From IMG/VR virus record IMGVR_UViG_3300006310_000001: a DNA stretch of 64,000 nt; one strand, 5' to 3'. How positions within the stretch are numbered: the stretch's first letter is position 1; every line of letters starts with the position of its first letter. Position numbers and translations under genes: made by a program. Of the stretch, positions 6,383 through 50,157 are shown in pieces. Source of the DNA: a virus. The notes beneath the pieces are model-generated. The model worked only from the letters and a program-made list of their open reading frames with translations, had not been told where the DNA came from and did not search any database.

Positions 6383-6389
6383 TAATATT

Positions 6390-8336: not shown

Positions 8337-8347
8337 TGATTATCCTA

Positions 8348-8488
8348 TTAGATACTATCCATTATTGCTTTAACAAAGTCAGCATTTGCTTTCTTTGTTT
8401 TATCACAAATGGTTCCTGCTGTATCAACAGTTTCACTACATAATTCTTTTGAAACTTCAATACACCATCTTTTTATTTCTTTTAACAT
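8348..8488 (-). CDS. small hypothetical protein (46 aa)
   Basis: Manually read ORF MLKEIKRWCIEVSKELC...IMDSI, start overlapping the upstream stop. Confidence 0.5.
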   Translation of the reverse strand: MLKEIKRWCIEVSKELCSETVDTAGTICDKTKKANADFVKAIMDSI

Positions 8489-8976: not shown

Positions 8977-8984
8977 AGTTCTCC

Positions 8985-14728: not shown

Positions 14729-14794
14729 ATGTATTCTCCTTTTGTATTAACATATTCGTTGTATTTGTGTAGACTATATAATCGTCTTCATTAT

Positions 14795-14845
14795 TATTTA
14801 TACACTCACTATGTCTAATATAACATAATTAGAGCATAGAGTCAA
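14795..14845 (-). promoter_or_regulatory. tandem sigma70-type (TTGACT-N17-TATATT) and late (TATAAATA) promoters for gp32
   Basis: -35 at 14840-14845; late box at 14795-14802. Confidence 0.65.
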
Positions 14846-33120: not shown

Positions 33121-33798
33121 CTAATTCCACAATTTCTTGACCCATTCTTGGTCTGAATCGTGTGGTAAAGGTCTTCCGTGAAATACTGCAACTTTCGCTT
33201 TTTCTTTCTTTTCAAACTTCCAACCTGACTTATGAAATCTAGGGTCTTTTCTACTATGCCATTTATAAGAATATGTCCATTCGTCTGGCATAACCTTTAA
33301 ATTCTTACTATTTTTAACTAATTTGGACATTGCGTTTTGGTCACCTTGCAATTTCATTAAATTAGATTTATCTTCTAAAAACTTATTCCATACTAATTTA
33401 GTTGCAACTTCATTATTGAATTTCATTATACTTGAATTATACTCTTTCGTTGCTAGGTTGAAATCGTTTATTACACCAAATGTCATATCATCACCAAATG
33501 TCGCTAATTCATTGATGTTATCTAAAATCACTACATCTAAATCCATATATAAACAAGGACCTTTTAATTCTGACTCTTCTCTAAATAACTGCATTTTATT
33601 CCACCAACCGTCATAAGTTGAATCTCTAAACTTTCTAAATTCTATGTCACCTTTTAATATCTTTTGAGGTTTTACGTGGTCTGAAAAACATATAAACTTA
33701 TGGGGTATGGTTAAATGTCTTTTAACCATATTGTATAGCACTTGTACATAATCTAGTGAATACTTTGTTCCATAATATACACAGCAAAAATTTATCAT
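33121..33798 (-). CDS. GT-A fold glycosyltransferase
   Basis: WWNKMQLF, LYMDLDVVI (DxD), YNSSIM, GDQ, VFHG.P.PH. Confidence 0.82.
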   Translation of the reverse strand: MINFCCVYYGTKYSLDYVQVLYNMVKRHLTIPHKFICFSDHVKPQKILKGDIEFRKFRDSTYDGWWNKMQLFREESELKGPCLYMDLDVVILDNINELATFGDDMTFGVINDFNLATKEYNSSIMKFNNEVATKLVWNKFLEDKSNLMKLQGDQNAMSKLVKNSKNLKVMPDEWTYSYKWHSRKDPRFHKSGWKFEKKEKAKVAVFHGRPLPHDSDQEWVKKLWN

Positions 33799-34310
33799 AC
33801 ACTATTCCAAGAAATCATTATCCTATCTCCTGGTCCTTTAAAAGGATAAACACAATGTAATAAAGTAGAAGGCCAAACGAAGTAATCTCCATCTTTTGGA
33901 CTCCAACTAAACACTTTATTATTTGATACCCAATTCATATTACCTTGTGGTTGTGTCAATTTAGGTACTTTTAAATAAAGACCACCAGATATACCATTTT
34001 TCACTTCCTGATGACCGTGGAGCATATGGAAATCTCCTTCTCGCATTAAACCTGCCCAAACTTCCATTATTTTTCTATCTTTTGATTCATATTCATAAGT
34101 TATCTTATTAATTAAATCCCATACTTTTTCATTAAAAGGAACCCTTTTCATTTTTCCATTTTGAAGAGTTGTTTTTTGTATCTGTTCTAAAAAATCTCCT
34201 GTATCAGTTTCTTCTTCTAACAAAGCACAAATATAATCTGTTATAGGTACGTCTTTTATATTACCTCGTAACATAGCAATGCCTTCTTCTCCAAATGGTT
34301 TAATTATCAT
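33795..34310 (-). CDS. 2OG-Fe(II) oxygenase-like protein
   Basis: HMLHGH..ISGGLYL..PKDGD..VWPSTLLHCVYP..RIMISWN. Confidence 0.75.
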   Translation of the reverse strand: MIIKPFGEEGIAMLRGNIKDVPITDYICALLEEETDTGDFLEQIQKTTLQNGKMKRVPFNEKVWDLINKITYEYESKDRKIMEVWAGLMREGDFHMLHGHQEVKNGISGGLYLKVPKLTQPQGNMNWVSNNKVFSWSPKDGDYFVWPSTLLHCVYPFKGPGDRIMISWNSV

Positions 34311-35128
34311 ACGTTTTGTTCTTGTAATGTTCTATAAGCAGTTCCATCTGTAATTTCAGATATTGTAAATTGATTTTCTGCAATCATCTTTAACCATTCT
34401 GTTATAGTCTTTCGTCCTGGTCTCATTGGTTTGTTTATAAACTTTATATCTTTTGATGAAACAAATGACGCTATATTTCGTTGATGGCATATTACAGGTA
34501 CTTGATTTAATATTGAATCAATAGCAGATAAACTCATATTGGTTACCAAACAATGAGCATTTTTTAAGTCTTCTTTAATATCTGTATTCCAAAACTCATT
34601 ACCAGGTCTAGGTTTATTTCTAAATCTAACTGGTTTATCTGTATGTTCTGCTATCTGTTTTGTTGCTTGTTCAACCCATTGTGATTGGCTCATACCATTG
34701 ATTTGGTAAGTTACCGTTTCAGAAGAAGGTGCTACTAGTATATGAGTTGTTTCTCCAGTATTCCACCCTTTAAACTGTACATCAATCCCTTGATGCTCTA
34801 GTTTCTGTAATCTTGAACCAGGTCCAACTTTGCACCTAATCGTGTGTATATTACCTTTACATATTCTAAAATATGTCTTATCGTAATCGTGTATTTTAGG
34901 TTCTGGATATCTTGTAATTTGTTGTGTTAAATAACCAACATCTACGTACCACCATTCCTCACCACTCTCCATACATTTACGTATTTCTTTTCTATTCTGT
35001 CCAGCTAACCCCCAAAAAAAGTGAACAGGTTTATCTGTATCAGTCCAACCTTTTTCTATGGCAGGAAATAACTGTTTACTTAAACATTTATCCCAAGGTA
35101 TATTATGCGTTATTATCATAAGTTTCAA
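34307..35128 (-). CDS. GT-B-like / capsule polysaccharide-type protein
   Basis: WWYVDVGY; ILVAPS; VRFRNKP; LKNAHCLVTNMSLSAIDSILNQVPV. Confidence 0.5.
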   Translation of the reverse strand: MKLMIITHNIPWDKCLSKQLFPAIEKGWTDTDKPVHFFWGLAGQNRKEIRKCMESGEEWWYVDVGYLTQQITRYPEPKIHDYDKTYFRICKGNIHTIRCKVGPGSRLQKLEHQGIDVQFKGWNTGETTHILVAPSSETVTYQINGMSQSQWVEQATKQIAEHTDKPVRFRNKPRPGNEFWNTDIKEDLKNAHCLVTNMSLSAIDSILNQVPVICHQRNIASFVSSKDIKFINKPMRPGRKTITEWLKMIAENQFTISEITDGTAYRTLQEQNV

Positions 35129-36158
35129 ATACTGTATTCAATGATTGGTTACATCTAACAAAACTTGCACATTTAGGAATATCTTTTAGTCGTCTTGCAC
35201 CAATATAGGTACAACTTGACCTAACACCCCCTAATATATCTTCTATTGTTTCTTTAACAGCACCTCTATCAGGTAATATTACTGCTCGTCCTTCATTACC
35301 TCTATAACCGTCTTTTCGTTTTCCGTGTACTTCTCTTGCTCTATCAGAAGACATCCCATAAAACTCTCTTTTACCATCTTTACTTTCTACTTCACTTTCA
35401 TTATGTCCTGCTAACATTCCACCTAACATCACAAAATGAGCACCACCACCAAATGCTTTCGCAATATCTCCTGGCATATTACAACCACCATCTGCAACTA
35501 TATGACCACCAACACCATTAGCAGCGTCAGCACACTCTACTACTGCACTAAATTGAGGTACACCTACACCTGCCATTGTTCTTGTTGTACATACACTACC
35601 TGGTCCAATACCTACTTTAACTACGTCTGCACCTTGTATAATTAGTTCTTCGGTCATTTCAGCAGTTACTACATTACCTGCAATTATAGTTTTGTCTGGA
35701 TACTCTTCTCTAACTGCACCAACAAAATCTGAAAAGTTTGTATGGTAACCATTTGCAACATCTACTGTAATAAACTTAACATCTGGAAAACTCTTTAATA
35801 CTTTTTGCATTGTAGTATAATCTTCAGCATTATCATCCCATAATTTACCTGTGCCTGTACATACTGATAGATACTTTAATTTAATACCTTCACCTACTGC
35901 TTTTCTCCATTGTTCTATCGTTGTTGTCTTTGTAATCGTGGTCAACATCTTATACTCTTGTATAACTTTCGCCATACTAAATGTTCCCACTCCATCCATA
36001 TTACTTGCTATTATTGGACAACACTCATATGTTTCACCAGAATTTCTAAATGTAAATGACCTAGTCATTTCTACATCACGTCTTGATGATAATGTTGACC
36101 GTTTAGGTTTCAACAATACGTCTTTATAATCTAATTTTACTTCGTTATCTAATCTCAT
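35103..36158 (-). CDS. guaC: GMP reductase
   Basis: KLDYKDVLLKPKRSTLSSRRDV, PIIASNMDGVGTF, DVANGY, KVGIGPGSVCTTR, FYGMSS, LGGVRSSCTYIGA. Confidence 0.96.
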   Translation of the reverse strand: MRLDNEVKLDYKDVLLKPKRSTLSSRRDVEMTRSFTFRNSGETYECCPIIASNMDGVGTFSMAKVIQEYKMLTTITKTTTIEQWRKAVGEGIKLKYLSVCTGTGKLWDDNAEDYTTMQKVLKSFPDVKFITVDVANGYHTNFSDFVGAVREEYPDKTIIAGNVVTAEMTEELIIQGADVVKVGIGPGSVCTTRTMAGVGVPQFSAVVECADAANGVGGHIVADGGCNMPGDIAKAFGGGAHFVMLGGMLAGHNESEVESKDGKREFYGMSSDRAREVHGKRKDGYRGNEGRAVILPDRGAVKETIEDILGGVRSSCTYIGARRLKDIPKCASFVRCNQSLNTVFETYDNNA

Positions 36159-36907
36159 TGTACTTTTCTCCAAGCTGTTCCATTTTTTATTTCTGTCATA
36201 GTAAATTGATTTGCTAATAAACTATATATCCAGTTTAATCTAGCAGGTCTTATAGGTTGTTCTATTTTACTAAAATCGGTTAACCCCATTGGTACACCCA
36301 TATTCATTTTATCACAAAATACAGGTACCCCATTTAAAATAGCGTCAACTACAACTGCTGAATTATGAGATACTATAGCATATGCACTTTGTACTTCTTC
36401 TCTTAAAGGTCTGCTACTCTTTTTATCTCTTACTTTAATAGGTCTATCTGTATATTGTTTTAAAGTCTTTATAGTATCATCAACCCAACTACCTATATTA
36501 TGATATGCTATTTGAAAATGAGAAGGTGCTATAATTAAGATATAATTGCCATCACTTTTCCAGGGTTGTAATTTTATATACTGTTTATACTTTTTAATTC
36601 TTTCATTATCTTCATCTGTTAGTTCTTGTATAGTTTGTATATGATAATGATTTTTTGTTAATCTATATATTCTCTCACCAGTTACCTTTGATGGAGAGTG
36701 TCTATTACCATATAAGTAAGCGTGGTCAAAATAATAAAACTCTTTACTTTGTTTCAAAAGTTCGCCTGTGCCTCTTAATATTCCAAAACAAGTAATAGGT
36801 TTATCTATATCAACATCTTTAACATTATGTAATGTTCCTCCTGCACTTGAAACAAAATGTCTTACAATATCATCTGTTGCTGGTCTAGTTAATAATCCTT
36901 GTATCAT
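36155..36907 (-). CDS. GT-B-like / capsule polysaccharide-type protein (paralog)
   Basis: FYYFDHAY; ILIIAPS; IKVRDK; AYAIVSHNSAVVVDAILNGVPV. Confidence 0.5.
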   Translation of the reverse strand: MIQGLLTRPATDDIVRHFVSSAGGTLHNVKDVDIDKPITCFGILRGTGELLKQSKEFYYFDHAYLYGNRHSPSKVTGERIYRLTKNHYHIQTIQELTDEDNERIKKYKQYIKLQPWKSDGNYILIIAPSHFQIAYHNIGSWVDDTIKTLKQYTDRPIKVRDKKSSRPLREEVQSAYAIVSHNSAVVVDAILNGVPVFCDKMNMGVPMGLTDFSKIEQPIRPARLNWIYSLLANQFTMTEIKNGTAWRKVQ

Positions 36908-37581
36908 TTAACCATATTTGTTTCAGTTGTTTCTTCCTTTAATTTTAACCATTCTTCTGCATAATCACAATTTAAATAATCTACAAACCAAGGTCCACCT
37001 TCTGTAAAATGGACGTTCTTAACATCATCTTTCTTTTGATATTCTCCACTTAACCAATTCCACTCTAAAGGTAGTTCACCAATCATATTATCATTTTCTA
37101 ACCATTTAAATTGGTGTAGTTGTAATCCTGTTGCACTATTCACATAATCTGGTGTTAGTGCTGTACACTTATCACAATTCATCAACATAAAACTTGACCA
37201 ATTTTTCTTTTCATACTTTGTTTGAGGTTGACCTAAAAACTTCTTTGTCTTTCTTGGTATATAATCGTGCTTACACACTTGTACAGCATATTTCTCATCC
37301 CTTAATCTCCATAACTCAGCAATATCTGTTAACATTAACTGGTCACAATCCATAAACAATGCCCACCCCTTATAATTCATAAGGTGAGGTACTATAAATC
37401 TACTAAAACTAAATTCAGTTGATTCTATATTACTACGTTCTCTAGTAAAATTATCTTTTATATTTTTTAAATATATTGGTGTAATAGATACAGGTCTGGT
37501 ACTATGTTTTAATATACTATATGCAAGTACATTAAAAGCAACCTTCTCTTTACTATCATACCCAATAAAAATATTAATCAT
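36904..37581 (-). CDS. GT8-like glycosyltransferase
   Basis: IFIGYD, STEFSFSRF, ALFMDCD (DxD), KNWSSFML, LPLEWNWL, HFTEGGPW. Confidence 0.85.
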   Translation of the reverse strand: MINIFIGYDSKEKVAFNVLAYSILKHSTRPVSITPIYLKNIKDNFTRERSNIESTEFSFSRFIVPHLMNYKGWALFMDCDQLMLTDIAELWRLRDEKYAVQVCKHDYIPRKTKKFLGQPQTKYEKKNWSSFMLMNCDKCTALTPDYVNSATGLQLHQFKWLENDNMIGELPLEWNWLSGEYQKKDDVKNVHFTEGGPWFVDYLNCDYAEEWLKLKEETTETNMVK

Positions 37582-37583
37582 TA

Positions 37584-37820
37584 CTATTTCGTTTTTATAG
37601 GCATTCTTATATTTTTACGCAACGCTCTTACTAACTCACCTAACTTATCAATAATCGCTATCGCATCCTCATCCGTAATATAATGTCGTTGCTCTTTAAG
37701 TTCATCATATTCTCTTAAAGGAATCGTAACAGTTCTATTAAGTTGTGTTTCATTTTCATATGTCAAGTTATGAGCATTGTCTTGGTCATCTACGCCGTTT
37801 GTCATCTGTTTCTTCTCCAT
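37584..37820 (-). CDS. hypothetical protein
   Basis: 78 aa ORF. Confidence 0.55.
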   Translation of the reverse strand: MEKKQMTNGVDDQDNAHNLTYENETQLNRTVTIPLREYDELKEQRHYITDEDAIAIIDKLGELVRALRKNIRMPIKTK

Positions 37821-38575
37821 TCTGGACTATTTGCTTGTTTTTTTCTTTGTCCTTTTCTATGGTCTATATATGGGTTAAGAAACGTATCTCTTGCCATTAT
37901 ATGTCCATTTCTACCATCCCCTAGTGGTTTTTCACTATACCTGGGATCGTTTTTAAACATTTGCCTAGTACCGTCCAATGTATGGCAATCTGTCCAAAAA
38001 TTCTTTCCTAATTTCTTTATTGTATATACTTTATCTGTTATATACCATTTTTTATATTCACGAAAAAAGTCATCTACTACACGACTTCTATTATTAAATG
38101 CAACAAAACCTGTTTCTGTATATTGTGATGGTCTATGATAAAATGATAAAAATGTTAAATCTGGTAAACAGTTCTGATACCAAGAGTCGTGTATTGTGTC
38201 CATAAACTTACAATCACTATCTACATAATATATTTTAGTTCCCCAACCTCTTGCTGCTGATTGAGCAAATACTTTATAACTAAATCTTACCGCTTCTTCA
38301 TAAAAATTATTTGCTGTTCTATGTTTATTTCTTTGAACAAAATCTTTACAATCTGGTTCAAAGTCAAATAAATTATAATAATGTACTCTATCTACTTTAG
38401 GATATAAATTTGGATTATCTTCAACAAAAACATACATATGTGGTTTTTGATTTGTTGCCACGTATGAGTCAATTAATTGATGAGCATAATCATCATATAA
38501 TCTTTTATTAAATGTTGTACAAAATATGTATGGGGCTAATCCCCTAGTTGGTCCGTATGCTCCGAGTCCGCTCAT
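37802..38575 (-). CDS. GT-A-like glycosyltransferase
   Basis: AVRFSYKVFA, YYVDSD (DxD), YTETGF, WTDCH; probable start MSGLG. Confidence 0.65.
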   Translation of the reverse strand: MSGLGAYGPTRGLAPYIFCTTFNKRLYDDYAHQLIDSYVATNQKPHMYVFVEDNPNLYPKVDRVHYYNLFDFEPDCKDFVQRNKHRTANNFYEEAVRFSYKVFAQSAARGWGTKIYYVDSDCKFMDTIHDSWYQNCLPDLTFLSFYHRPSQYTETGFVAFNNRSRVVDDFFREYKKWYITDKVYTIKKLGKNFWTDCHTLDGTRQMFKNDPRYSEKPLGDGRNGHIMARDTFLNPYIDHRKGQRKKQANSPEWRRNR

Positions 38576-39621
38576 ATACAATTCTCTGGAGCATCCCAAA
38601 GTCTTGGTACTCCTGATTGATGGTCACTACAATATCTACCTACATCAGCGTCAACCATTTCTTTCATTAAACTCTCTACATTATGTTTATGTTCCCAACC
38701 TAATACTTCTCTTGCCTTACTAGCATCCCCTTGTAATACATCTACCTCAGCAGGTCTTAAATGTTTCTTATCAGTAGTAATAATTAATTGATTGCCGTCT
38801 GTAAAACACTTACCATCTTTCCAATAATGTTTTATTCCTTTATAATCTAATGCCATATCTGCAAATTCTTTTACTGTATGAATTTCACCAGTTGCTAATA
38901 CATAGTCATCTGGTTTATCGTGTTGTAGCATTTGCCACATACCTCTAACAAAATCCTCAGCGTGTCCCCAATCTCTTTTTGCATTTAAATTTCCTAAAAC
39001 AATTGGTCTTCCTTCTTGCAACCAATGTGCTAAACCTTTTGATATCTTTCTAGTTACAAAGTCCTCACCTCTATGTGGACTTTCGTGATTAAATAAAAGA
39101 CCACAACAAGCAAACATATCATACGCTTCTCTATAATTAATTGTTATATGATGAGCATATAGTTTTGCAACACCATATGGTGACCTCGGCCAGAATTTTG
39201 TTGTTTCTTTTTGTGGCGTTTCAAATACTTTTCCATACATTTCACTTGTACTTGCTTGATAGAATTTTATTTTAGGATTTACTTGTCTTATACTTTCTAG
39301 TATTCTCAAAGGACCCATTGCGTCTATTAGAGTAGCAAGTTCTGGTTGTTTAAATGATAACCATACAAATGATTGAGCAGCTAAATTATATACTTCGTCT
39401 GGTTGAGATTCCTCTATTGCTCTTCTTATATTCGCTTGGTCTATTACATCAAGTTCAACAAACTCTATTTGGTCTGTAATACCCATTTCATCTAGTCGCC
39501 AATGTTTTGGTGATGTACTTCGTCTTTGTCCACCAAATACTTTATAACCTTTTTCTAATAACAATTTAGCAAGATAAGCGCCGTCTTGTCCAGTTATACC
39601 TGTAATCAATGCTCTTTTCAT
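38572..39621 (-). CDS. gmd: GDP-mannose 4,6-dehydratase
   Basis: ALITGITGQDGAYLA, YNLAAQSFV, QASTSEMYG, PRSPYGVAK, FNHESP, FVTRKI, RDWGHA, RPAEVDVL. Confidence 0.97.
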   Translation of the reverse strand: MKRALITGITGQDGAYLAKLLLEKGYKVFGGQRRSTSPKHWRLDEMGITDQIEFVELDVIDQANIRRAIEESQPDEVYNLAAQSFVWLSFKQPELATLIDAMGPLRILESIRQVNPKIKFYQASTSEMYGKVFETPQKETTKFWPRSPYGVAKLYAHHITINYREAYDMFACCGLLFNHESPHRGEDFVTRKISKGLAHWLQEGRPIVLGNLNAKRDWGHAEDFVRGMWQMLQHDKPDDYVLATGEIHTVKEFADMALDYKGIKHYWKDGKCFTDGNQLIITTDKKHLRPAEVDVLQGDASKAREVLGWEHKHNVESLMKEMVDADVGRYCSDHQSGVPRLWDAPENCI

Positions 39622-40772
39622 TTTATGTCCTTTGTTATGTGATATACCATATCAATATTTTCTTTTAAATCTCTTATATCATTTCCTATAAACAAACCAT
39701 TGTTATGAATATAATCTGCATTTGGACAACTATTATTATAATAATCAAGATAATCTATTACAGGATTGTTCATAAAATTACCTGCAACAATAGGTCTACA
39801 CTCTACTCCGTTTTCTGTAAGTTTCTTAACAAGTTGGTCTCTTTTGCCTTCATATTCATCAACTAACAAAATGGAAAATCCAAACCAACTAGACTCTCCT
39901 ATTTCTTTTTGTAATTGTACACCTGGCATTTCTTCAAACTTATGTTGAAAATAGTTTGCATTACGAATTCTTTGTGTTCTCATTTCTTGTTCTTTTTTAA
40001 GTTGTACACTTCCAATTGCACCACTCATTTCTAAAGGTCTTACACTATAACCTGGAGTTACAAACGTAAAACTATCTTTAAACTTATCACCTGTCTTTTT
40101 ATAAATCTTATTATCGTCTGGTAAATCTCTACACCAACCGTGTGCTCTTAATGACCTTAAATAATCAGCGTCATCTTTATTTCTACAAGCAATCATTCCA
40201 CCTTCCATTGTTTGTAAGTGATGTGAAAAGAAGAAAGAAAAACTACCTAAATCAGCAAACGTTCCACAATATTCATAGTTATATGTCTGAGCACCTAAAC
40301 TCTCACAATTGTCCTCTATTAACATAAGGTTGTGTTCTCTAGCAATATGCATTAATGAATAATGGTCACAGGAGTTACCTAAAAGATTAACTGCAAATAT
40401 AGCGCAAGTATCGTCATTAATTGCTTCTCTAACTTTATTAGGGTCTATATTTAAAGTTTCTCTATCTACATCTACAAAATTTAATTTGAAACCGTATTGT
40501 TGTAATGGAAAGTATGTTGTTGACCAAGAAACAGCAGGTACAATTATATTACCACCTTTTTTATATTTTAATTTTAACAATGCTATCATTAATAGATTAG
40601 CAGTTGAACCACTATTAACCATAACTGCGTCATTACATCTAAAATATTTGGCAAACTCTTGCTCAAACTTCTTAACGTAAGGACCCATTGTATATCGCCC
40701 ACTTTTTATGACTTCTTGTATTGCGTGTAACTCTTTATGATCCCAAGTATCACTAGCTAATTGATATTTCAT
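39618..40772 (-). CDS. colD: DegT/DnrJ-fold enzyme, ColD-type GDP-4-keto-6-deoxymannose 3-dehydratase
   Basis: VNSGSTANL, VPAVSWSTT, EDNCES, SFFFSHHLQTMEGG (His at the usual PLP-Lys position), RAHGW. Confidence 0.85.
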   Translation of the reverse strand: MKYQLASDTWDHKELHAIQEVIKSGRYTMGPYVKKFEQEFAKYFRCNDAVMVNSGSTANLLMIALLKLKYKKGGNIIVPAVSWSTTYFPLQQYGFKLNFVDVDRETLNIDPNKVREAINDDTCAIFAVNLLGNSCDHYSLMHIAREHNLMLIEDNCESLGAQTYNYEYCGTFADLGSFSFFFSHHLQTMEGGMIACRNKDDADYLRSLRAHGWCRDLPDDNKIYKKTGDKFKDSFTFVTPGYSVRPLEMSGAIGSVQLKKEQEMRTQRIRNANYFQHKFEEMPGVQLQKEIGESSWFGFSILLVDEYEGKRDQLVKKLTENGVECRPIVAGNFMNNPVIDYLDYYNNSCPNADYIHNNGLFIGNDIRDLKENIDMVYHITKDIK

Positions 40773-40779
40773 AATTTTC

Positions 40780-42606
40780 CTATATATTCATCTTAAATAC
40801 TTTATACCAAATCGCAAATGCCATTATAGTAAACAGTTCTTTTTGTGAGCGTTGACCAATATTAGGTAATATTTTCTTTTCTCCAGCTTTATTTAAACCT
40901 TTTGACCAACTTTCTCTTTTATTACACATATATTTATCATCTATTTCGGACTGGTTATATTCAAATATTTCTTGCATTTCTTTATTTGATAATACATTCC
41001 TAATATAATCTTTTAATACATTTCTATCATCAGCTCGTTTGCTAAGTCTACCTACAATAAATTCATCTGTAGGAAATCTCCAACCAGTTTTCTCTCTCTC
41101 TAATATTTTTAATGGTAATCTTTTATAATATGCTGTCTTTAATAGTGGTTTATTATAATATGCCCAATTATCTTCCATAAAATTCTTGTTGATTTTATGT
41201 TCACTAGGGATACTTCGTATATAATCTCTAAAAGTTTTATTCATAAAAGGAAATCTTCCTTCTAAACTAAATCTCATACCTAACTTATCATTTCTCATTA
41301 AAAAATCTTCTGATAATGTATTTAAACACTCAATGAACATAAAATCATTTCTTTCATCACCTTGCAAACCACCTTTTGGAAACCAACTATCAAGATACTC
41401 TAATTGTTCTTCGTGTGTTGCCCATAGTTCTTTATTTTTTAATTCTCTATGATTAGCACATAATGCTTTTAACTTCGTTGCCCAATCTGGTTGTCTATGA
41501 TGTTTATAACCAGCAAATAATTCATCTCCACCATCACCACTTAAAGTTACCGTTATGCCTTGATTTTTTATATTTTCATTAACACCATAATATACAGGCA
41601 AACTTTTACTTTGTCTAGGTTCTTCTAAAGCTAACGCTGTATTTTCCCAATTATCTATAAAATATTGTTGATTAATATATGGTTCTCTATGTTCACCACC
41701 ATATGTTGCTGACATTTCTTTTGCCAATATACAATCTTCGTTAGACCTTGATTTCCAATCATAAGTTTCAAACTTTGAACTAAATGTTTTTGGTTTTGTT
41801 TTCCCTAATTGGGACATTTCATAACAAATAGCCGTACTATCAATACCACCACTTAAAAACAATCCAATTTCTCTACGACCCATTAAGGTTTCTTTTACTG
41901 CCTGGTGTAATCTATTTCTAACTTCTTCTTTAATTTTACCTACATTTTTAACATTTCTTAACCCTATTTGTCTATTATTAATATTAGTAGAAATTTTAGC
42001 ACTAGTTACTACGTTCATCTTAACAACTTCACCTGGTACTAATTTTTTAATACCTTTAAACAATGTCAAATAACCAGAATTATATCCTTGTTTATAATAC
42101 TGTTTGAATGCCTCTTTATCTACTTTTCTTTCAAATCCTAATGTTAATAAACTTTTAATCTCGGATGAAAAAGCAAACTTACCATTTATATAACCATAAT
42201 AAAGAGGTTTAGTTCCATTACTATCTCTGGCAATAATTAATTCTTTTGTCTTCTTATTATAGCAAGCAAATGCAAACATTCCATCTAATTTTTCTATAAA
42301 TGATATGCCATATCTTTCTAAACCTAACATTAAAACTTCCGTATCTGTATTAGTTTTAAGTTTAAATTCTTTACCTAGTTCTTTGTAATTGTATATCTCA
42401 CCATTATATACTAACACCCTATCGTTATGAATCCAAGGTTGTTTTGAATTTTCTGTAGTGTCTATGATTGATAATAAATTATGACCTAAAGTAATATCTT
42501 CATCTTGCCAATGTCCATTACCATCAGGTCCTCTATGATGTGCTTCGCACAACATTTCTTTTATCAAACTAGTTGATGACCATAATATTCCGTGTATCGC
42601 ACACAT
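40780..42606 (-). CDS. AsnB-family glutamine amidotransferase (asparagine synthase-like)
   Basis: N-terminal Cys2, HRGPDG, YNGEIYNY, GMFAFA, RDSNGTKPLYY, LSGGIDS, SGDGGDELFAGY. Confidence 0.93.
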   Translation of the reverse strand: MCAIHGILWSSTSLIKEMLCEAHHRGPDGNGHWQDEDITLGHNLLSIIDTTENSKQPWIHNDRVLVYNGEIYNYKELGKEFKLKTNTDTEVLMLGLERYGISFIEKLDGMFAFACYNKKTKELIIARDSNGTKPLYYGYINGKFAFSSEIKSLLTLGFERKVDKEAFKQYYKQGYNSGYLTLFKGIKKLVPGEVVKMNVVTSAKISTNINNRQIGLRNVKNVGKIKEEVRNRLHQAVKETLMGRREIGLFLSGGIDSTAICYEMSQLGKTKPKTFSSKFETYDWKSRSNEDCILAKEMSATYGGEHREPYINQQYFIDNWENTALALEEPRQSKSLPVYYGVNENIKNQGITVTLSGDGGDELFAGYKHHRQPDWATKLKALCANHRELKNKELWATHEEQLEYLDSWFPKGGLQGDERNDFMFIECLNTLSEDFLMRNDKLGMRFSLEGRFPFMNKTFRDYIRSIPSEHKINKNFMEDNWAYYNKPLLKTAYYKRLPLKILEREKTGWRFPTDEFIVGRLSKRADDRNVLKDYIRNVLSNKEMQEIFEYNQSEIDDKYMCNKRESWSKGLNKAGEKKILPNIGQRSQKELFTIMAFAIWYKVFKMNI

Positions 42607-42608
42607 AA

Positions 42609-43664
42609 TTATCTTTGTAATAACTCCTTTATATAAGGTATAATCAAGTGTGAATTAAATTCTTCCATATCAAATTCTGTATGAGATACCATTTTATACC
42701 AATTTAAAACTTCTAGTGGAGTAGCATAATATATTTTCTCTATCCTATCAATACTAGTATTGTTTAATTTAATTCCAAAATTCCATTTTGAAGTAATACA
42801 AGGTATTCCTAAATTAATAAGTTCAAAAATACTTGTACTTTCTCCTAACACACCACAATAAACTCTATCTACAATAGTTCGTAATTTGGTCTCTCTTGGT
42901 AAAACTTCAACATCTTTCACCAAATCTTTAACTACAATTTTACTTAATGGGTGTGGTTTAACTATAATTTTTCTATTTGTTGCTAGTCTAACTCTTTCAA
43001 CACTAGTTTTAATAAATTCTGGTACAGAAACAGAAGATGTAGGGTCATATTCTAAACCAGGTATAATTAAAACTGCACCATCTTTATTATTTTTCCATTG
43101 ATGTGGTTCTATATTCTGCAACTTTATTTTATTTTTCTTTTCAGTTTTTTCAATCATAGTATGTAATCTTGATGGGTTTGAATTATCAACTTTACACCAT
43201 TTAGTTCTTCCATATGTCCAATGACCTAACCCCATACGATAATATCTTGGACCTGTATTTTTATACCAAGAATCTATGTAATTACATTTTATTCTTGATA
43301 ATGTAGCACTTTCAGTTACAATAACTTTTTTATTATACATCTTTGCTAGTTCTTGAACAAAGACATTTATAAATTCCATTCTTGCACTTCTAACTTCTGT
43401 GCTTGGTCTTCCGTGAGCTAGTTTACTATCTTCAGCATAAATTTTATCTGGTTTCCATTGTCTTGCTGGATTTGTACTACCCCACGTACCATCAACTAGA
43501 TAAGCGTCAGCATTTTTTATCCAATATAAATCTTCTAAAGATATTGGTTTATCTTTTACTTCAACAACTCTATGTACTGACATATCAGATTGTGGATTAG
43601 AATTAATAACTCCACATATTGCTGCCAATGCATTACCCGATCCAAAAGCTACTATCTTTTTCAT
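42609..43664 (-). CDS. GT-B-like / capsule polysaccharide-type protein (third related copy)
   Basis: VLIIPG; IVKPHP; ESTSIFELINLGIPC. Confidence 0.45.
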   Translation of the reverse strand: MKKIVAFGSGNALAAICGVINSNPQSDMSVHRVVEVKDKPISLEDLYWIKNADAYLVDGTWGSTNPARQWKPDKIYAEDSKLAHGRPSTEVRSARMEFINVFVQELAKMYNKKVIVTESATLSRIKCNYIDSWYKNTGPRYYRMGLGHWTYGRTKWCKVDNSNPSRLHTMIEKTEKKNKIKLQNIEPHQWKNNKDGAVLIIPGLEYDPTSSVSVPEFIKTSVERVRLATNRKIIVKPHPLSKIVVKDLVKDVEVLPRETKLRTIVDRVYCGVLGESTSIFELINLGIPCITSKWNFGIKLNNTSIDRIEKIYYATPLEVLNWYKMVSHTEFDMEEFNSHLIIPYIKELLQR

Positions 43665-43981
43665 TATTCATTTTTCACATTATAAAAAGTATATTTAACT
43701 GTTAATTCTTCCCACGCTTTTATAGGTCGTTCAGTATATAAAAAATACTTATTATAATTTTCAACATCTTTAAGTCCTAATTCACCTCTCACCTTTATAC
43801 AGTTTGGTTTATCACTATGATTAATATGACCACCTAAAGGTGTTCTTATAAGTTCATCATTAACAACAATATGACATAAACCTAACTTTACATCTTTCTC
43901 AATAAACTTTGTTGTAAATAATCCTTGACCTTCTATAGAAGATTTTTTAATTATTAATCCGTCTGGTAATGGTTTATACAT
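43664..43981 (-). CDS. SET domain protein
   Basis: SSIEGQGLFT, GGHINHSDKPNC, IKAWEELTVKY. Confidence 0.88.
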   Translation of the reverse strand: MYKPLPDGLIIKKSSIEGQGLFTTKFIEKDVKLGLCHIVVNDELIRTPLGGHINHSDKPNCIKVRGELGLKDVENYNKYFLYTERPIKAWEELTVKYTFYNVKNE

Positions 43982-44649
43982 TAGCTTGGTCCCATTTTAT
44001 CATCTTTATCTCCATAATGTAAATAAGACATCATAACATATTTTGGTCCACTAATTGGTTTTAATCCAGCGTGTGGATGAGTCCAAAAAGGTGGAAACAC
44101 TAACAATCTTGTTGCTCTTGGTGAAATCATTATATTCTGTTTTGGTAAATGTGTTTCACCGCCTTTTTCAACATCATTAAGATATAAAATAAAAACTAAA
44201 AAACGTTTTGCTGAAAGACCCCTAGAACGGAGTACATCAACGTGTTCTTTAAATTCATCTTTATCATTAGGTAAATATTTTTTTATTCTTATGTTTTCCC
44301 TATCAATTATTGGTGGAAAATGTTCATTTTTTATATTTAAATTCATCATATATCTTTCTTTATACAATTTCAACATATGAAGAAATTTATCTCTAGGTTC
44401 TTTCCAAAAGAGAAGGTTATCAGGTTTGTCTATATCAATTTCAGTAAATTCTTTATGACCAGTTTTAAATGCGTCTACACTAGATTTATTGTAGTTGGCT
44501 ATCTGTTCAAACTTATTAACAATCATTTTACAATCTTCCACGTCCATTGCGTGATTATACACCATCATATTATTCTTAGCAAATTCATCTAATGTAGATG
44601 TTGGCATATCTCTTAAACGTGAATTAAAATTAGGTTTAGTTTTGTCCAT
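43981..44649 (-). CDS. 2OG-Fe(II) oxygenase (prolyl 4-hydroxylase-like)
   Basis: FKEHVD, LYLNDVEKGGET, LLVFPPFWTHPHAG, KYVMMSY. Confidence 0.88.
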   Translation of the reverse strand: MDKTKPNFNSRLRDMPTSTLDEFAKNNMMVYNHAMDVEDCKMIVNKFEQIANYNKSSVDAFKTGHKEFTEIDIDKPDNLLFWKEPRDKFLHMLKLYKERYMMNLNIKNEHFPPIIDRENIRIKKYLPNDKDEFKEHVDVLRSRGLSAKRFLVFILYLNDVEKGGETHLPKQNIMISPRATRLLVFPPFWTHPHAGLKPISGPKYVMMSYLHYGDKDDKMGPS

Positions 44650-45049
44650 AACTACTCGGTGCCATAAATGTTCGTCTAACTATTGCTGCTTGTTCATCTT
44701 TAGTTTTAACATAATATCCTTCAATATGTGTATATCCATTTTCTTTTGCCCAATACACTCTCTTGTTGCCTGTATGTACTGCAATACCAGGTATAGGAAT
44801 TCCTGAATATGCGTCCTTCGGCCATCTTTTTTCTACTAACCAATAATACTTCATATTAGTATATATGATTGGATACATCATACCTAACCTATCTATACTT
44901 TTCTTAAATCTAGGATATCTTTTCATCATCCAATCATTATCAGCAGTTAACATTAAATTTTCTAATGGTACTTCTACTACTCTTGGAGTTACACCTACTA
45001 AAGGTTCATCTTTACAAGTAACTCTTTTTTTTGCTTTTAATAATTTCAT
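44636..45049 (-). CDS. ParB/Srx-like domain protein
   Basis: KKSIDRLGMMYPII...GNKRVYWAKENGYTHI matches the SI..G...PI..G..R..A...G pattern. Confidence 0.45.
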   Translation of the reverse strand: MKLLKAKKRVTCKDEPLVGVTPRVVEVPLENLMLTADNDWMMKRYPRFKKSIDRLGMMYPIIYTNMKYYWLVEKRWPKDAYSGIPIPGIAVHTGNKRVYWAKENGYTHIEGYYVKTKDEQAAIVRRTFMAPSSYGQN

Positions 45050-45363
45050 ACTTGTAATTCAAAAACATCAAATTCAATGCCTTCTAACTCTTTTGGTTTA
45101 CCTTTAGGATAAGTCGGCCAAAGTTGGAATTCTTCTCCAGTTGTATCACTTTTACAACCTGCAACTAACCAATCCCATTTAAATTCTCCGTCTATAATAA
45201 ACTCGTTCATCACTTCATATCTTCCATCTGGTTTTTGTAAAAGTAATTCTTTTTTACATTCTTCCATATTTTTATACCAACCTTCCATTTGGAAAGTTTG
45301 TTGTGTTTCTATTGGACTATGACCAATTAGATATGCTAATATTAATATTTTAAAGTCGCCCAT
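45046..45363 (-). CDS. hypothetical protein
   Basis: 105 aa coupled ORF. Confidence 0.6.
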   Translation of the reverse strand: MGDFKILILAYLIGHSPIETQQTFQMEGWYKNMEECKKELLLQKPDGRYEVMNEFIIDGEFKWDWLVAGCKSDTTGEEFQLWPTYPKGKPKELEGIEFDVFELQV

Positions 45364-46064: not shown

Positions 46065-47168
46065 TTACAATTTAAATTTCTTGAATTGATCCTTCTGTAC
46101 GTCTTGTTTAATTCCACCTATAACATAACTTTCAATTTCGGTCTCCTGTGGTGCATTTTGTAATGACCTACTATTTAACCAATGGTCAACCCAAGGTAAT
46201 GGATTTGTCTTTTGGTCATATTGTGGGTCTAATCCAATTGCTCTCATACGTCTATTTGCCATATACTCTACATATTGATGTAATAATTTTTCTGAAAGTC
46301 CTATCATAGAACCTTTTGAAAACAAATAAGTTGCCCAACGTTTTTCTTGATTAACTGCTCGTTCATACATTTTATAAACTTCTATTTGTGTATCTTTCAT
46401 TACCTTATTCATAATCTTATCATTTTCATTATCACGATAGTTATTAATTATTCTTTGTGATATTGATAAATGCAAACTTTCATCCCTTGCAATTAAAGAA
46501 AGTATTTTAGCAGAACCTTCTAACATCTTTAATTCTCCAAATGCAAACGAACAAGCAAAAGAAACATAAAATCTTAAACCTTCTAATATATTAACAGTCA
46601 TCAATGTTAAATATAGTTTCTTTTTCAACTCATACATATCAACACTATCTGGTGTTAATTGCCATTTATAACCTAAATTAATTAAATCATCATATGTTTG
46701 TGTTATACTAGTTGCCCTATTTTCAATCTTCTCATCTGTAACTATAGTATCAAAGATTTCACTAGGATTAGGATACAAATTCTTTATAATGTATGTATAT
46801 GAGTGTGAGTGTATGTTTTCAAAGAAGTCCCAAGCAATGACACAACTTTCTAATTCAGGTATTGAAACAAAAGGTAATAATGCCAACGCAGGACCTCTAC
46901 CTTGCACACTATCCATCATTGTTTGATATTTTATATTAGAAGTAAATATAAATTTACTTTGTTCATTTAATTCTCTATAATCTGCAATGTCTTTTTGTAA
47001 AGATACTTCTTCTGGTCTCCAAAAATAACCTAACTGTTGTTGAAACAGTTTATTAAAGATAGGATATTTTAATACATCATATCTTTGTACCTGTAAATCT
47101 TTACCAAAAAACATAGGTTGTTTGGTATAATCTAATTTTTTATCTATATTAAATACACTTTTAGTCAT
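46065..47168 (-). CDS. nrdB: ribonucleotide reductase class Ia beta subunit
   Basis: FWRPEEVSL, DSVQGRGP, ENIHSHSY, LEGLRFYVSFACSFAF, IARDESLH, APQETEIESY. Confidence 0.98.
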   Translation of the reverse strand: MTKSVFNIDKKLDYTKQPMFFGKDLQVQRYDVLKYPIFNKLFQQQLGYFWRPEEVSLQKDIADYRELNEQSKFIFTSNIKYQTMMDSVQGRGPALALLPFVSIPELESCVIAWDFFENIHSHSYTYIIKNLYPNPSEIFDTIVTDEKIENRATSITQTYDDLINLGYKWQLTPDSVDMYELKKKLYLTLMTVNILEGLRFYVSFACSFAFGELKMLEGSAKILSLIARDESLHLSISQRIINNYRDNENDKIMNKVMKDTQIEVYKMYERAVNQEKRWATYLFSKGSMIGLSEKLLHQYVEYMANRRMRAIGLDPQYDQKTNPLPWVDHWLNSRSLQNAPQETEIESYVIGGIKQDVQKDQFKKFKL

Positions 47169-47832
47169 TTATCGGTTCTAATTGTTCTTGCATTCTTTCT
47201 GATTCTGTTAATTCATAATGGTGGTCATCACTATCACCTGCTGTCCATTTACTTATATTATCTACACTATACTCTCTAGTAGATACTTTATAATCTGGTC
47301 TTTTTGGTTTACTAGGTGTTAATGATTTATCATAAAACAAAACTCTATTATTAGGTTGAGCAGCAAAATGCCCATTATCTAACTTTATTATGTTAAATGA
47401 TTTATGTTGAGAAGGAGTTTCACTATACCCTACATTATTTTCTTTATTCGTTGCACAACAACTATCTATACTAAACATATAATTGCCTTCATATAATTTC
47501 TTACTTGGTGATAGAAACGTACATCTATTGCCACTTACTAATTGTTTCTGTATAATAGTAATATCATAATCAAAACAATCCCATAACTGTAATTCTGGTA
47601 ATGCTATATCTTCTTTTGTTTCTTTCCATACAAAAGCATTTATAGGCAACTTATCATATAGTGCTCCTGTTTCATACAAATAAGTTTCAAAATATAATGC
47701 TCTACCTTGAATACTTTTAACAGTACACCAGATACCTGGTTCAAACTCTCCGTGACCTTTTTCTAAATCATAAAGGTATTGTTTTTTAACTAGTACTTCC
47801 GTATGTGGTACATTTGCACATAAAAATGCCAT
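47161..47832 (-). CDS. conserved hypothetical protein between nrdA and nrdB
   Basis: 223 aa; LQLWDCF, AAQPNNR; no homing-endonuclease motif. Confidence 0.7.
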   Translation of the reverse strand: MAFLCANVPHTEVLVKKQYLYDLEKGHGEFEPGIWCTVKSIQGRALYFETYLYETGALYDKLPINAFVWKETKEDIALPELQLWDCFDYDITIIQKQLVSGNRCTFLSPSKKLYEGNYMFSIDSCCATNKENNVGYSETPSQHKSFNIIKLDNGHFAAQPNNRVLFYDKSLTPSKPKRPDYKVSTREYSVDNISKWTAGDSDDHHYELTESERMQEQLEPIND

Positions 47833-47841
47833 AAAGTTCCT

Positions 47842-50157
47842 TTAAATTACGCAGGTTTCACATTCTTCTTCGTCTTTTTTCTCCATTATAGTTTTTGTTT
47901 CTGGCACATCATCTTTCCAACCAATAGGGTGTACAGGTTCCTCTATATCTCTTTTACTATCATATGTATTCTGATAATAGGAAGTCTTCCATCCTAATTT
48001 ATAAGTTGTTAATAAATCTTCCGCCATTATTGATAAAGGTATTTCTCCTTCATCATAATTTTCAGGATTATACGACCAATTACCACTAATTGATTGGTCA
48101 AAGTATTTCTGCATTACTGCTACTATGTTTATATATCCTTCGTTAGATTTCATATCCCATAACAATGTATAATTATTTTTCAATTTTTTATAATCAGGTA
48201 CAACTTGTTTTAAAGTACCTTTCTTACTTTTCTTAACTGAAATATAGTCCCTAGGTGGTTCAATGCCGTTTGTGGCATTACAAACCACGCTAGAGCTTTC
48301 AGAAGGCATTTGAGCTGTGAGTGTGCTATGTCTTAACCCAAATTCCTTAATATCTTTCCTCAAGTCTTCCCATTTATAAGATAGTTTCCTAGATACAATC
48401 TCATCAACTTCTTTTTTATAGGTGTCTATTGGTAAGATACCGTCTGAATACTTTGTTTTAGAAAAGGATTCACATTTGCCCTTTTCTTTTGCTAATTCAT
48501 TACTTGCTCTTAATAGATAATATTGGAATGCTTCTGATAACTTGTCTACTTCTTTACAAGCAGTTTTAGTTTCATAACCAACTCCTAGTGTCGCTAAGTA
48601 ATGAGCAAGACCAATATATCCAATTCCTAAACTTCTTCTATTTCTTGTAGAAATTTCTGCCGCTTTAACTGGATATCTTTGATGGTCTATAACTTCGTCC
48701 AATGACCTTACTGCTAAATCGCATAAGGATTCTAATTCATCTAAATCTTTTAAAAGTCCTACATTAATTGCTGATAATATACACAATGCAATTTCTCCAT
48801 TACCATCTATATGACTTATAGGTGTTGTTGGTAATGTTATTTCTTGACATAAGTTAGACATATAAATTCTATCTTTAAAAGAGGAGTGAGTATTACAATG
48901 GTCTATATTCATAATGTAAATACGACCTGTTTCTGCTCTTTCTTTTAAAATTGCCATAAACAAGTCCTGTGCTTTAAGTTTAGTTTTCCATACACTTGTT
49001 TTTCTTTCTGCCGTTTTATATATTTCATCAAATTCTTTTGTTCCCCACGCTTCATAAAGTTCTGGTACTTCGTGTGGTGAAAATAATGTTATCTCTTCAT
49101 CATTAATAAATCTTTCATAAAATAATTTAGATAACTGTATAGAGTAGTCTAATTTTCTTACTCTATTATCTTCGCTACCTTTATTATTTTTTAATACAAT
49201 AATATCTTCTATTTCTTTGTGCCAAATAGGAAAGTGAACGGTTGCCGAACCTCCTCGTACCCCATTTTGAGTACAACACTTAACAGTTGCTTCAAATTTT
49301 TTAAGAAAAGGAATAACGCCAGTATGTTGTACTTCGCCACCTCTAATACGTGAGTTGATTCCTCTAATTCTTCCTGCATTGATACCAATACCTGCTCTTT
49401 GGGCAACATACTTGCCAATGGCCATATCACTAGAAAAGATACTAGGCAAAGTATCATCAACATCCACCAACACACAACTCGCATACTGCCTAATAGGAGT
49501 TCGTACACCAGCCATAACAGGTGTTGGAATATTAATTTTAAAACGTGAAATAGCGTCATAATACTTTTTAACATAACTCATCCTTTTGTTTTTTGGGTAT
49601 TGTGAAAATAATGTAGCAGATATCATCATATACATAAATTGTGGCGTTTCATAAATTTGTCCTGTACTTCTATCTTGCACTAGATACTTGTCTATGACTT
49701 GTCTTAAACCTGCATATGTAAAAGTATAATCTCTTTCGTGATTTAACCAATTTTCCATTCTATCAAAATCTTTTTTGTCATACCAATTTAAAATTTCTTT
49801 ATCATAGACGCCTTTGTCTATACCATTTTGTACGTGTTGAAAAATATGTGGATGATCCCACATTTTATGAAATAGTTGTTTTCTTAAACTATAGAGTAAT
49901 AGTCTAGCGGCAACATATTGATAATTTGGATTTTCTAAAGTGATTAAATCGTTTGCTGATTTAATTAAGATTTGTTGAATTTCGTTTGTTGATATGCCAT
50001 CATAAAATTGTAGACCACTATTCATTTCTACAGAAGAAGCAGAAACTTGCGTTATATCTTCACACGCATATTCTACCATTTGATGTATCTTCTCAATGTT
50101 TAGAGATTCCTTACCTCTACCATTTCGTTTCACCACACTAATATTTTCATTCACCAT
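47842..50157 (-). CDS. nrdA: ribonucleotide reductase class Ia alpha subunit
   Basis: ATP cone, PTPVMAGVR, YASCVL, SNLCQEI, LCILS, AQMPSESSS, KTSYY, C-terminal CETC. Confidence 0.98.
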   Translation of the reverse strand: MVNENISVVKRNGRGKESLNIEKIHQMVEYACEDITQVSASSVEMNSGLQFYDGISTNEIQQILIKSANDLITLENPNYQYVAARLLLYSLRKQLFHKMWDHPHIFQHVQNGIDKGVYDKEILNWYDKKDFDRMENWLNHERDYTFTYAGLRQVIDKYLVQDRSTGQIYETPQFMYMMISATLFSQYPKNKRMSYVKKYYDAISRFKINIPTPVMAGVRTPIRQYASCVLVDVDDTLPSIFSSDMAIGKYVAQRAGIGINAGRIRGINSRIRGGEVQHTGVIPFLKKFEATVKCCTQNGVRGGSATVHFPIWHKEIEDIIVLKNNKGSEDNRVRKLDYSIQLSKLFYERFINDEEITLFSPHEVPELYEAWGTKEFDEIYKTAERKTSVWKTKLKAQDLFMAILKERAETGRIYIMNIDHCNTHSSFKDRIYMSNLCQEITLPTTPISHIDGNGEIALCILSAINVGLLKDLDELESLCDLAVRSLDEVIDHQRYPVKAAEISTRNRRSLGIGYIGLAHYLATLGVGYETKTACKEVDKLSEAFQYYLLRASNELAKEKGKCESFSKTKYSDGILPIDTYKKEVDEIVSRKLSYKWEDLRKDIKEFGLRHSTLTAQMPSESSSVVCNATNGIEPPRDYISVKKSKKGTLKQVVPDYKKLKNNYTLLWDMKSNEGYINIVAVMQKYFDQSISGNWSYNPENYDEGEIPLSIMAEDLLTTYKLGWKTSYYQNTYDSKRDIEEPVHPIGWKDDVPETKTIMEKKDEEECETCVI

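Follow-up and report, generated by a model that had tools for sequence, protein, structure and literature searches.

A modular island of predicted glycan-assembly genes at the nrdB-RuvC site of pelagimyophages

The IMG/VR virus record IMGVR_UViG_3300006310_000001, whose whole stretch of 64,000 nucleotides is called the window here, carries an uninterrupted run of 16 open reading frames (ORFs) on the minus strand at 33121-45363, downstream of nrdA-nrdB-RuvC. Judged by gene content and by comparison among related viruses, this run is a real and coherent island for predicted glycan assembly, modular in composition, anchored at a hot spot and all-cytoplasmic in its enzymes. As the acceptor of the glycan we slightly favour the phage's own proteins, in the first place virion or fibre proteins, with a probability of roughly 40%. 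The window is assigned to a pelagimyophage, a T4-like SAR11 virus of the Kyanoviridae type, because its NrdA (47842-50157) shares 83% identity with the NrdA protein of Pelagibacter phage Mosig EXVC030M (Mosig) and 78% with its counterpart in HTVC008M. Both phages were searched as complete genomes, and the nearest record, G001 (90 kb, 63% complete), served as a stand-in for many whole-genome searches; its identity to the window is 91-97% along the island.

The genes stand in the order nrdA, a 223-amino-acid (aa) ORF, nrdB, a 60-aa ORF and RuvC, followed by the island ORFs, and the RuvC and NrdB family calls were verified by profile match. A preliminary description of the window, made from the sequence without database searches, had noted a tightly coupled run after nrdA-nrdB-RuvC, and this is what is seen: the ORFs are densely packed on the minus strand, with stops and starts that overlap or abut. 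Its list of genes was right, although its count of 13 was not, since 15 ORFs lie within 33121-45049 and a sixteenth at 45046-45363. In the list below, given in transcription order, '265' denotes a GT-A-like glycosyltransferase (GT) of about 257 aa, '273' a KpsC-like protein of about 270 aa, GTa the GT-A-like protein at 33121..33798, and 2OG5 the 2OG-FeII_Oxy_5 protein, one of two 2-oxoglutarate (2OG) oxygenases.

45046..45363, minus strand: 105-aa ORF, the first after RuvC; no Pfam match, kept at 94-99%, at 72% in distant relatives, and absent from Mosig.
44636..45049, minus strand: 137-aa protein, plausibly ParB/Srx-like on marginal matches; G94 and R97 (GNKR) invariant.
43981..44649, minus strand: 2OG-Fe(II) oxygenase (2OG-FeII_Oxy_3), prolyl-4-hydroxylase (P4H)-like, accessory.
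43664..43981, minus strand: minimal SET-domain methyltransferase of 105 aa, accessory; nearest solved structure chlorovirus vSET.
42609..43664, minus strand: 351-aa KpsC/WbbB-like protein of predicted modified GT-B type; invariant Asp207 and H238-P239.
40780..42606, minus strand: AsnB-type glutamine-dependent amidotransferase, accessory, travelling with ColD; Cys2 and SGGIDS PP-loop.
39618..40772, minus strand: ColD-type, pyridoxamine phosphate-dependent GDP-4-keto-6-deoxy-D-mannose 3-dehydratase of the DegT family, accessory cassette.
38572..39621, minus strand: Gmd, GDP-mannose 4,6-dehydratase, in 19/22 distinct islands.
37802..38575, minus strand: 265, probable GT-A, core; conserved D-x-D, no family match.
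37584..37820, minus strand: 78-aa ORF, in a slot that holds other genes in some relatives (KdsA in L029).
36904..37581, minus strand: GT8-like GT-A, core; DCD motif, 73% identical to its Mosig homolog.
36155..36907, minus strand: 250-aa KpsC-like paralog, core; the Asp and His-Pro of the 351 family are replaced by Ser and Arg-Pro.
35103..36158, minus strand: GuaC, GMP reductase, accessory auxiliary gene; GSVCTTR.
34307..35119, minus strand: 273, KpsC-like paralog, core; family abundant in marine metagenomes.
33795..34310, minus strand: 2OG5 oxygenase, accessory; gene-sized indel, absent from G001 despite 94-97% identity.
33121..33798, minus strand: GTa, GT-A-like glycosyltransferase, core, at the downstream island edge; phrog_1962, DLD motif.

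Loci from IMG/VR were collected with two baits, ColD (25 loci) and the 351 family (80 loci), and about 100 viral contigs were found to have the island at the nrdB-RuvC site, nearly all in one order: nrdA-nrdB-RuvC-(105a-137)-(SET)-351-(methyltransferase)-(AsnB-ColD)-Gmd-265-GT8-250-(GuaC)-273-(2OG)-GTa, where brackets mark optional genes. Core and accessory genes were counted in 22 distinct islands, each complete from one flank to the other, whose lengths range from about 5 to 15 kb. The 265, GT8, 250, 273 and GTa genes are present in 22/22; Gmd follows in 19, the 351-aa gene in 15, ColD in 10 and AsnB in 7, the ColD and 351 counts being inflated because both proteins served as bait. GuaC, the P4H-like oxygenase and SET occur in 10/22 each and 2OG5 in 6/22. 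The backbone of the island is thus shown, at the level of gene content, to be five GT-like genes, three DXD-bearing GT-A types and two KpsC-like paralogs, held by a broad clade at a fixed site, while ColD with AsnB, GuaC, SET and the oxygenases behave as swappable accessories and not as obligate members of the predicted pathway. The preliminary description had proposed to check co-conservation in related phages, and this is found for the five-GT core; ColD with AsnB, GuaC, SET and the oxygenases are variable, and these enzymes, which had stood out in that description, are the accessories of the module. The ratio of nonsynonymous to synonymous substitution rates (dN/dS) is below 1 for each island gene (range 0.06-0.81), which indicates purifying selection on all of them, and the run of ORFs is judged to be more than chance because some 100 contigs repeat its order, dN/dS stays below 1 and the DXD motifs are invariant.

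The two cultured relatives carry variants at the same site. Mosig has homologs of 265, GT8, 250, 273 and GTa, and at this site two methyltransferases, glycosyltransferases and a sulfotransferase, and HTVC008M has there a GT, a methyltransferase, a carbamoyltransferase, an NAD-synthetase-like protein, a UDP-glucose dehydrogenase and a 2OG oxygenase. No match to the island was obtained by Megablast against isolated phages. Other cassettes also occupy island slots: in L012 a nucleotidyltransferase, a HAD protein, a PNP_UDP phosphorylase and a 322-aa ORF (7078-9985) replace 351 and AsnB, and an ATP-grasp gene resembling D-Ala-D-Ala ligase is found at 14784-15869; L029 has a KdsA-like synthase of 3-deoxy-D-manno-octulosonate (Kdo) 8-phosphate (2934-3707); and in L015 a radical-SAM/SPASM enzyme (7300-8178) stands in place of 351. 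The same families are found in other orders in other T4-like backbones (L115, L118/L119). In L118 the module 351-265-250-ColD-Gmd-GT8 sits after UvsX and a gp41-type helicase, and three small ORFs of the GT29 sialyltransferase family (7322-7858, 13959-14468 and 14465-15025; L118/L119) flank it. The DUF6267 gene of L118 is seemingly split (4239-4730 and 5417-6589), and its upstream part weakly resembles an intein-splicing domain, at a score under the Pfam cut-off.

The sugar-nucleotide enzymes of the island appear to be intact. The ColD-type protein matches PF01041 at 264 bits and aligns over its full length (residues 2-379) with E. coli ColD (2gms; E 9e-120); its S-H-H site has the wild-type columns, at which the H188N variant entry reads S-N-H. 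By these residues the DegT-family protein is a true ColD type, with the catalytic His (His188 in E. coli) in place of the usual Lys. The best match to it among isolated phages is 34% identical, and no ortholog was found there. Gmd scores 408 bits with PF16363 and 413.7 bits with TIGR01472, slightly below the cut-off of 415, and the motifs of short-chain dehydrogenases/reductases (SDRs), GxxGxxG, S-E and YxxxK, are visible. The AsnB protein reaches 356 bits with TIGR01536 (cut-off 267), has Asn_synthase and GATase domains and begins M-C, features of an amidotransferase that is intact by sequence. The earlier statement that Gmd and ColD provide a GDP-3,6-dideoxy sugar precursor is borne out by the full-length ColD match and the kept His; their predicted product would be GDP-4-keto-3,6-dideoxy-D-mannose. 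The family calls made previously for both 2OG oxygenases, SET, AsnB, ColD, Gmd and GuaC stand by profile match, and that for GT8 by a marginal one.

Neither Pfam (E up to 10) nor NCBIfam returned anything for the 137-, 351-, 265-, 250- and 273-aa proteins. Three of these had been called GT-B-like, and this agrees with what was found. By BLASTP, 250 and 273 are paralogous to each other (26% identity, E 1e-27), and the 351-aa protein is related to them more remotely (E 2e-5); comparison of profiles by hhalign gave 99% probability (E 4e-18). AlphaFold models were of high confidence, with a pLDDT of 91.7 for the 351-aa and 89.1 for the 273-aa protein. The 351-aa model resembles KpsC (Z 13.7, root-mean-square deviation 4.2, 248 aligned residues) and WbbB (Z 13.7), the 273-aa model resembles KpsC (Z 12.6), and the next unrelated GT-B entries stand at Z 9.2 and 8.3. 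As modelled, both proteins are nearest to the retaining beta-Kdo transferases KpsC and WbbB, which have a highly modified GT-B architecture.

Three residues define KpsC: the Asp of a QXXXD motif, which is the nucleophile, the HP-motif His and a Glu that acts as base; in retaining beta-Kdo GTs the HP-motif His protonates the CMP phosphate (PMC10148158). In the 351 family Asp207 is invariant and lies six residues past a strand, like D160 of KpsC, a correspondence placed by motif spacing and not by residue-level superposition; Gly is found where QXXXD has Gln, and H238/P239 are invariant in K-P-H-P about 30 residues after Asp207, a KpsC-like spacing. At these two places the 273/250 family has Ser and K-P-R-P. 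No match to Capsule_synth (PF05159) was obtained for the trio (E up to 10) or in G001 (E up to 1), and a PDB sequence-profile search with the 351 family gave nothing useful. The three proteins are predicted to work like GT99/GT107 enzymes, yet they are not demonstrable members of these families because the Gln is missing, Ser and Arg-Pro stand in 273/250, and Capsule_synth does not match; 250 and 273 probably differ in chemistry or in donor. An earlier proposal had been to check the GTs for catalytic residues: DXD is invariant in the GT-A types and 351 keeps its Asp and HP, but 250 and 273 have Ser and Arg-Pro.

The 273-aa family by itself has 741 database matches (E ≤ 0.001), and no member of the 351 family was found in isolated phages. 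Among viral proteins, those structurally closest to the 351-aa protein are four from Tetraselmis virus 1 (E 7e-15 to 7e-10), a virus whose host is a eukaryotic alga, and two of the four are named capsule-synthesis proteins. In cellular genomes, homologs of the 273 family form the C-terminal domain of proteins about 600 aa long, whose neighbours are a methyltransferase and GT1 proteins of 833 aa; this setting looks polysaccharide-synthase-like. Homologs 62% identical to the 273-aa gene are found in L032, L033 (Porticoccaceae metagenome-assembled genome, MAG, MED754) and L034 (Rickettsiales MAG MED606), which are probably contigs of pelagimyophages that ended up in the bins of bacterial MAGs. 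In the cultured jumbo phage CcrBL9 of Caulobacter (L031), six hypothetical-protein genes lie at 119133-123622 between tail/tail-fibre genes and lysozyme; a 273-family homolog, three genes past the tail/tail-fibre genes, and an FkbM methyltransferase are held there in one operon, and the block is a candidate fibre-glycosylation module.

In the three GT-A-like families (265, GT8 and GTa) the DXD motif is invariant across homologs. GT8 matches PF01501 at 24.4 bits, which is marginal against the cut-off of 24.3, and also phrog_28018, and GTa matches phrog_1962 at 1e-22, Nucleotid_trans weakly and PF03407 below the cut-off. For 265 there is no profile match, and its probable assignment to GT-A comes from a language-model lead together with the DXD. 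PDB profile searches found no sequence match to solved structures for 265, GT8 or GTa, and hhalign among the three families aligned the DXD region alone, which was not significant. The 265 gene (37802-38575) and the P4H-like oxygenase gene (43981-44649) are present in the window as divergent alleles relative to L007, L020 and L040 (78-79% and 68-70% aa identity, respectively), in the midst of neighbours that are mostly 94-100% identical, the relatives compared for the oxygenase being 97-100% identical elsewhere, and the dN/dS of the two (0.43-0.70) is among the highest of the island, which suggests local allele replacement or diversifying selection.

Among the accessories, the oxygenase at 43981-44649 is closest to the prolyl 4-hydroxylase of Bacillus anthracis (E 5e-8), and the SET protein is closest to vSET (E 0.003). 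The 2OG5 gene (33795-34310) shows an exact, gene-sized presence/absence against G001/L021, with flanks 93-97% identical. For GuaC (NF003470 at 469.6 bits, cut-off 397; catalytic Cys loop in GSVCTTR), the best reading is that of a nucleotide-salvage passenger unrelated to the glycan, because it is missing from distant islands and occurs alone in unrelated large phages; the conversion of GMP to IMP would presumably suit an AT-rich genome. The first profile of the 137-aa protein found nothing useful in PDB. With an extended profile the top eight PDB matches were ParB, Spo0J, Noc and sulfiredoxin at marginal E (0.003-0.04), those to ParB N-terminal domains and sulfiredoxin at 0.003-0.009; the GxxR motif (G94, R97) is invariant in the family and one distant member has ParB_N above the cut-off. 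The earlier ParB/Srx-like label is therefore plausible rather than firm, and the protein may be part of the DNA-metabolism neighbourhood and not of the glycan module. In that neighbourhood, the 223-aa ORF between nrdA and nrdB (47161-47832) is 70% identical in Mosig and 68% in HTVC008M, where it is annotated as a ferredoxin, and has no Pfam match.

Several functions needed to complete and export such a glycan are missing from the island and from the relatives searched. Gmd is the sole PF01370 SDR in G001, so that a ColC/Fcl-type enzyme to finish colitose is lacking; no other SDR, and hence no 4-reductase of this type, was found in G001, which is 63% complete, or among the island ORFs. Neither a KdsB/NeuA-type CMP-sugar cytidylyltransferase nor KdsA was found in G001, Mosig or HTVC008M, and no gene for GDP-mannose supply was noticed among the island ORFs. 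PF02397 (Bac_transf), PF00953 (WecA-type, Glycos_transf_4) and PF01943 (Wzx) are absent from G001, Mosig and HTVC008M, and no island protein has a hydrophobic, membrane-like segment. The island therefore depends on the host for GDP-mannose, a reductase and probably CMP-Kdo, and for export if the product leaves the cell. The preliminary description had spoken of a self-contained pathway that builds a glycan; the coherent module stands, but without ColC and a CMP-sugar synthetase it is not self-contained. The same description had noted that an exporter and an initiating transferase are lacking in the window, which extends to G001 and to the complete Mosig and HTVC008M genomes, and had argued against a classical O-antigen cassette, a view that the absence of an initiating transferase, Wzx and membrane segments upholds.

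In the proposed route, Gmd would convert host GDP-mannose into GDP-4-keto-6-deoxymannose, ColD would then strip the 3-OH, and the 3,6-dideoxyhexose would be completed by a reductase not encoded here, either a host Fcl-like enzyme or a bifunctional Gmd. The 351-aa enzyme, with its Asp and HP motif, could attach an acidic sugar that the host supplies in CMP-activated form, for example Kdo; AsnB may amidate a carboxylate, and the remaining transferases would lengthen the chain. If glycosylation proceeds in the cytoplasm, the result would be a lineage-specific glycan coat on virion or fibre proteins. A fuller form of this proposal is more tentative, and we regard it as rather doubtful: that in pelagimyophages, and in many other T4-like phages of the sea, the virion or fibre proteins bear a coat of oligosaccharides particular to each lineage, in which an acidic ulosonic sugar is combined with a 3,6-dideoxyhexose and which are made by a KpsC/WbbB branch invisible to Pfam, in which the exchange of Asp/His for Ser/Arg in two paralogs would therefore mean a new donor or a new mechanism.

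We lean slightly towards phage proteins as the acceptor, ahead of the host envelope. All enzymes of the set are soluble by sequence, and no exporter was found to go with them in G001, Mosig or HTVC008M; P4H-like and vSET-like genes, which are protein-modifying families, recur at different island positions; and a 273-family gene lies near tail-fibre genes in CcrBL9. The relatives of 351 in Tetraselmis virus 1 point the same way, since to our knowledge its eukaryotic algal host makes no lipopolysaccharide (LPS) or capsule. Of the 162 'LPS' genes of pelagimyophages at large, 63 are located with genes for tail fibres (PMC7029224), which we count in favour of a virion target. A number of results weigh against such an acceptor. 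The island is located in the replication/nucleotide region and not beside structural genes. The exact T4-type late promoter TATAAATA is absent from the minus strand at 25562-52089 of the window, which covers nrdAB and the island. Collagen repeats, a conceivable acceptor for the P4H-like oxygenase, were not found in G001, Mosig or HTVC008M, and a scan of the window for Ser/Thr-rich proteins returned a single one, an exported FecR-domain protein. ColD-type sugars and GT8 enzymes are classically associated with LPS. Characterised KpsC and WbbB use lipid-linked acceptors (PMC10148158), the published view for pelagimyophages is host O-chain modification (PMC7029224), and no glycosylated virions of a marine T4-like phage were found in the literature searched. 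In the window as a whole TATAAATA is not enriched (10 found vs 16 expected), and scans for sigma-70 promoters and terminators stayed at chance level. The next matches to TATAAATA, at 52082 and 57066, belong to the curli/FecR block.

The host envelope, which is the published interpretation (PMC7029224; PMC9602691; PMC12801897), is a serious rival, although we hold it to be short of probable. The enzymes would act at the inner membrane face of SAR11, either on intermediates of host LPS or capsule that are still lipid-linked or, in the manner of KpsS/KpsC, on phosphatidylglycerol as the primer, and host exporters would display the glycan, so that superinfection by rival pelagiphages is blocked or progeny are kept off infected cells. 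ColD/colitose, GT8, AsnB-type enzymes and KpsC/WbbB-like folds are typical of O-antigen and capsule pathways, the cellular 273 homologs adjoin large GT1 proteins in their polysaccharide-synthase-like setting, the early/replication-region location without a late promoter fits, and cassette swapping would mirror SAR11 glycotype diversity. However, neither the island nor the complete relatives encode an initiating transferase, a flippase, a ligase or an exporter, the island proteins have no membrane segment, surface LPS would presumably be replaced slowly in infected, non-growing cells, and a virus with a eukaryotic algal host has relatives of the 351 GT family. It is improbable that the genes have no common product at all and that a hyperplastic site gathers unrelated auxiliary genes, the sugar genes acting separately on host metabolism. 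The coming and going of GuaC, SET and the 2OG oxygenases, the solitary GuaC of unrelated phages and the gene-sized 2OG5 indel between near-identical genomes would agree with this, but the five GT genes are in all 22 distinct complete islands, 351, 265, 250/273, ColD, Gmd and GT8 stay together, reordered, in unrelated phage backbones, and the Gmd-ColD adjacency is that of a known two-step pathway.

DNA glycosylation, one of the substrates offered by the preliminary description, is unlikely as the role of the island, and hypermodification, in which the GTs would put sugars on phage bases against host nucleases with the aid of the ParB/Srx-like protein and the oxygenases, is given the lowest odds of these readings, even though nrdAB and RuvC are neighbours of the island, its genes include a plausibly ParB/Srx-like one and LPS-related phage GTs can modify 5-hydroxymethylcytosine (5hmC; bioRxiv 10.1101/2023.12.21.572611). 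The routes to hmC, 5-hydroxymethyluracil (hmU) and 5-hydroxycytosine (5hoC) need a thymidylate-synthase homolog (PMC13326640) and the alternative route needs a C5-methylase and TET (bioRxiv 10.1101/2023.12.21.572611), and both PF00303 (thymidylate synthase) and PF00145 (C5 methylase) are absent from G001, as far as its 63% completeness extends. PF12851 (Tet_JBP) also had no match in G001, but the controls were silent too and this result is uninformative; the oxygenase at 43981-44649 is P4H-like and not TET/JBP. GDP-deoxyhexose donors with six transferases have no precedent on DNA, where phage glycans are reported with up to three sugars (bioRxiv 10.1101/2023.12.21.572611; PMC13326640), and restriction-modification is rare in SAR11 (PMC7029224).

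Clusters of sugar-nucleotide and GT genes are already well described in marine T4-like phages, as LPS/cell-wall clusters of pelagimyophages (Zaragoza-Solas 2020, PMC7029224) and of the cyanomyophages S-SCSM1 (PMC9602691) and S-SCSM2R (PMC12801897). The island shares with them the Kyanoviridae-type backbone, nucleotide-sugar enzymes including Gmd, many soluble GTs, 2OG oxygenases, asparagine-synthase-like genes and the absence of an exporter. New here are the fixed nrdB-RuvC hot spot with its invariant backbone of five predicted transferases, the ColD/AsnB cassette and the trio of KpsC/WbbB-like paralogs that Pfam does not recognise. With the colitose pathway of E. coli O55/O111 the island has in common an adjacent and intact Gmd and ColD, but that pathway also has the ColC epimerase/reductase and O-antigen assembly and export genes, which the island does not. 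KpsC (GT107), WbbB (GT99) and KrkA have the modified GT-B fold predicted for the phage proteins, and 351 has an Asp and an HP motif at KpsC-like spacing; unlike them, the phage proteins are single-module and soluble, have no Capsule_synth match and no Gln, and bear Ser and Arg-Pro in 273/250.

Virus-encoded clusters for virion glycosylation exist in chlorovirus PBCV-1 and in Mimivirus. Mycobacteriophage virions are glycosylated as well, according to the account of Freeman 2023 given in PMC12801897. The island resembles these systems in its virus-encoded sugar-nucleotide pathway, its soluble cytoplasmic GTs and its lack of export genes, and the chloroviruses also in vSET-like and P4H-like genes; it differs from them in lying away from structural genes.

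SAR11 myophages infect the most abundant bacteria of the sea, and the role of the large 'LPS-like' gene sets of such viruses has been a question since the first cyanophage clusters. For this question the island provides a defined, widespread and modular object, with a backbone of five predicted transferases at one hot spot, and a large, uncharacterised family of viral KpsC-like enzymes is exposed with it. Mosig and HTVC008M are cultured (HTCC1062) and carry variants at the same site, and the chemistry of their virions, LPS and DNA is therefore directly comparable.

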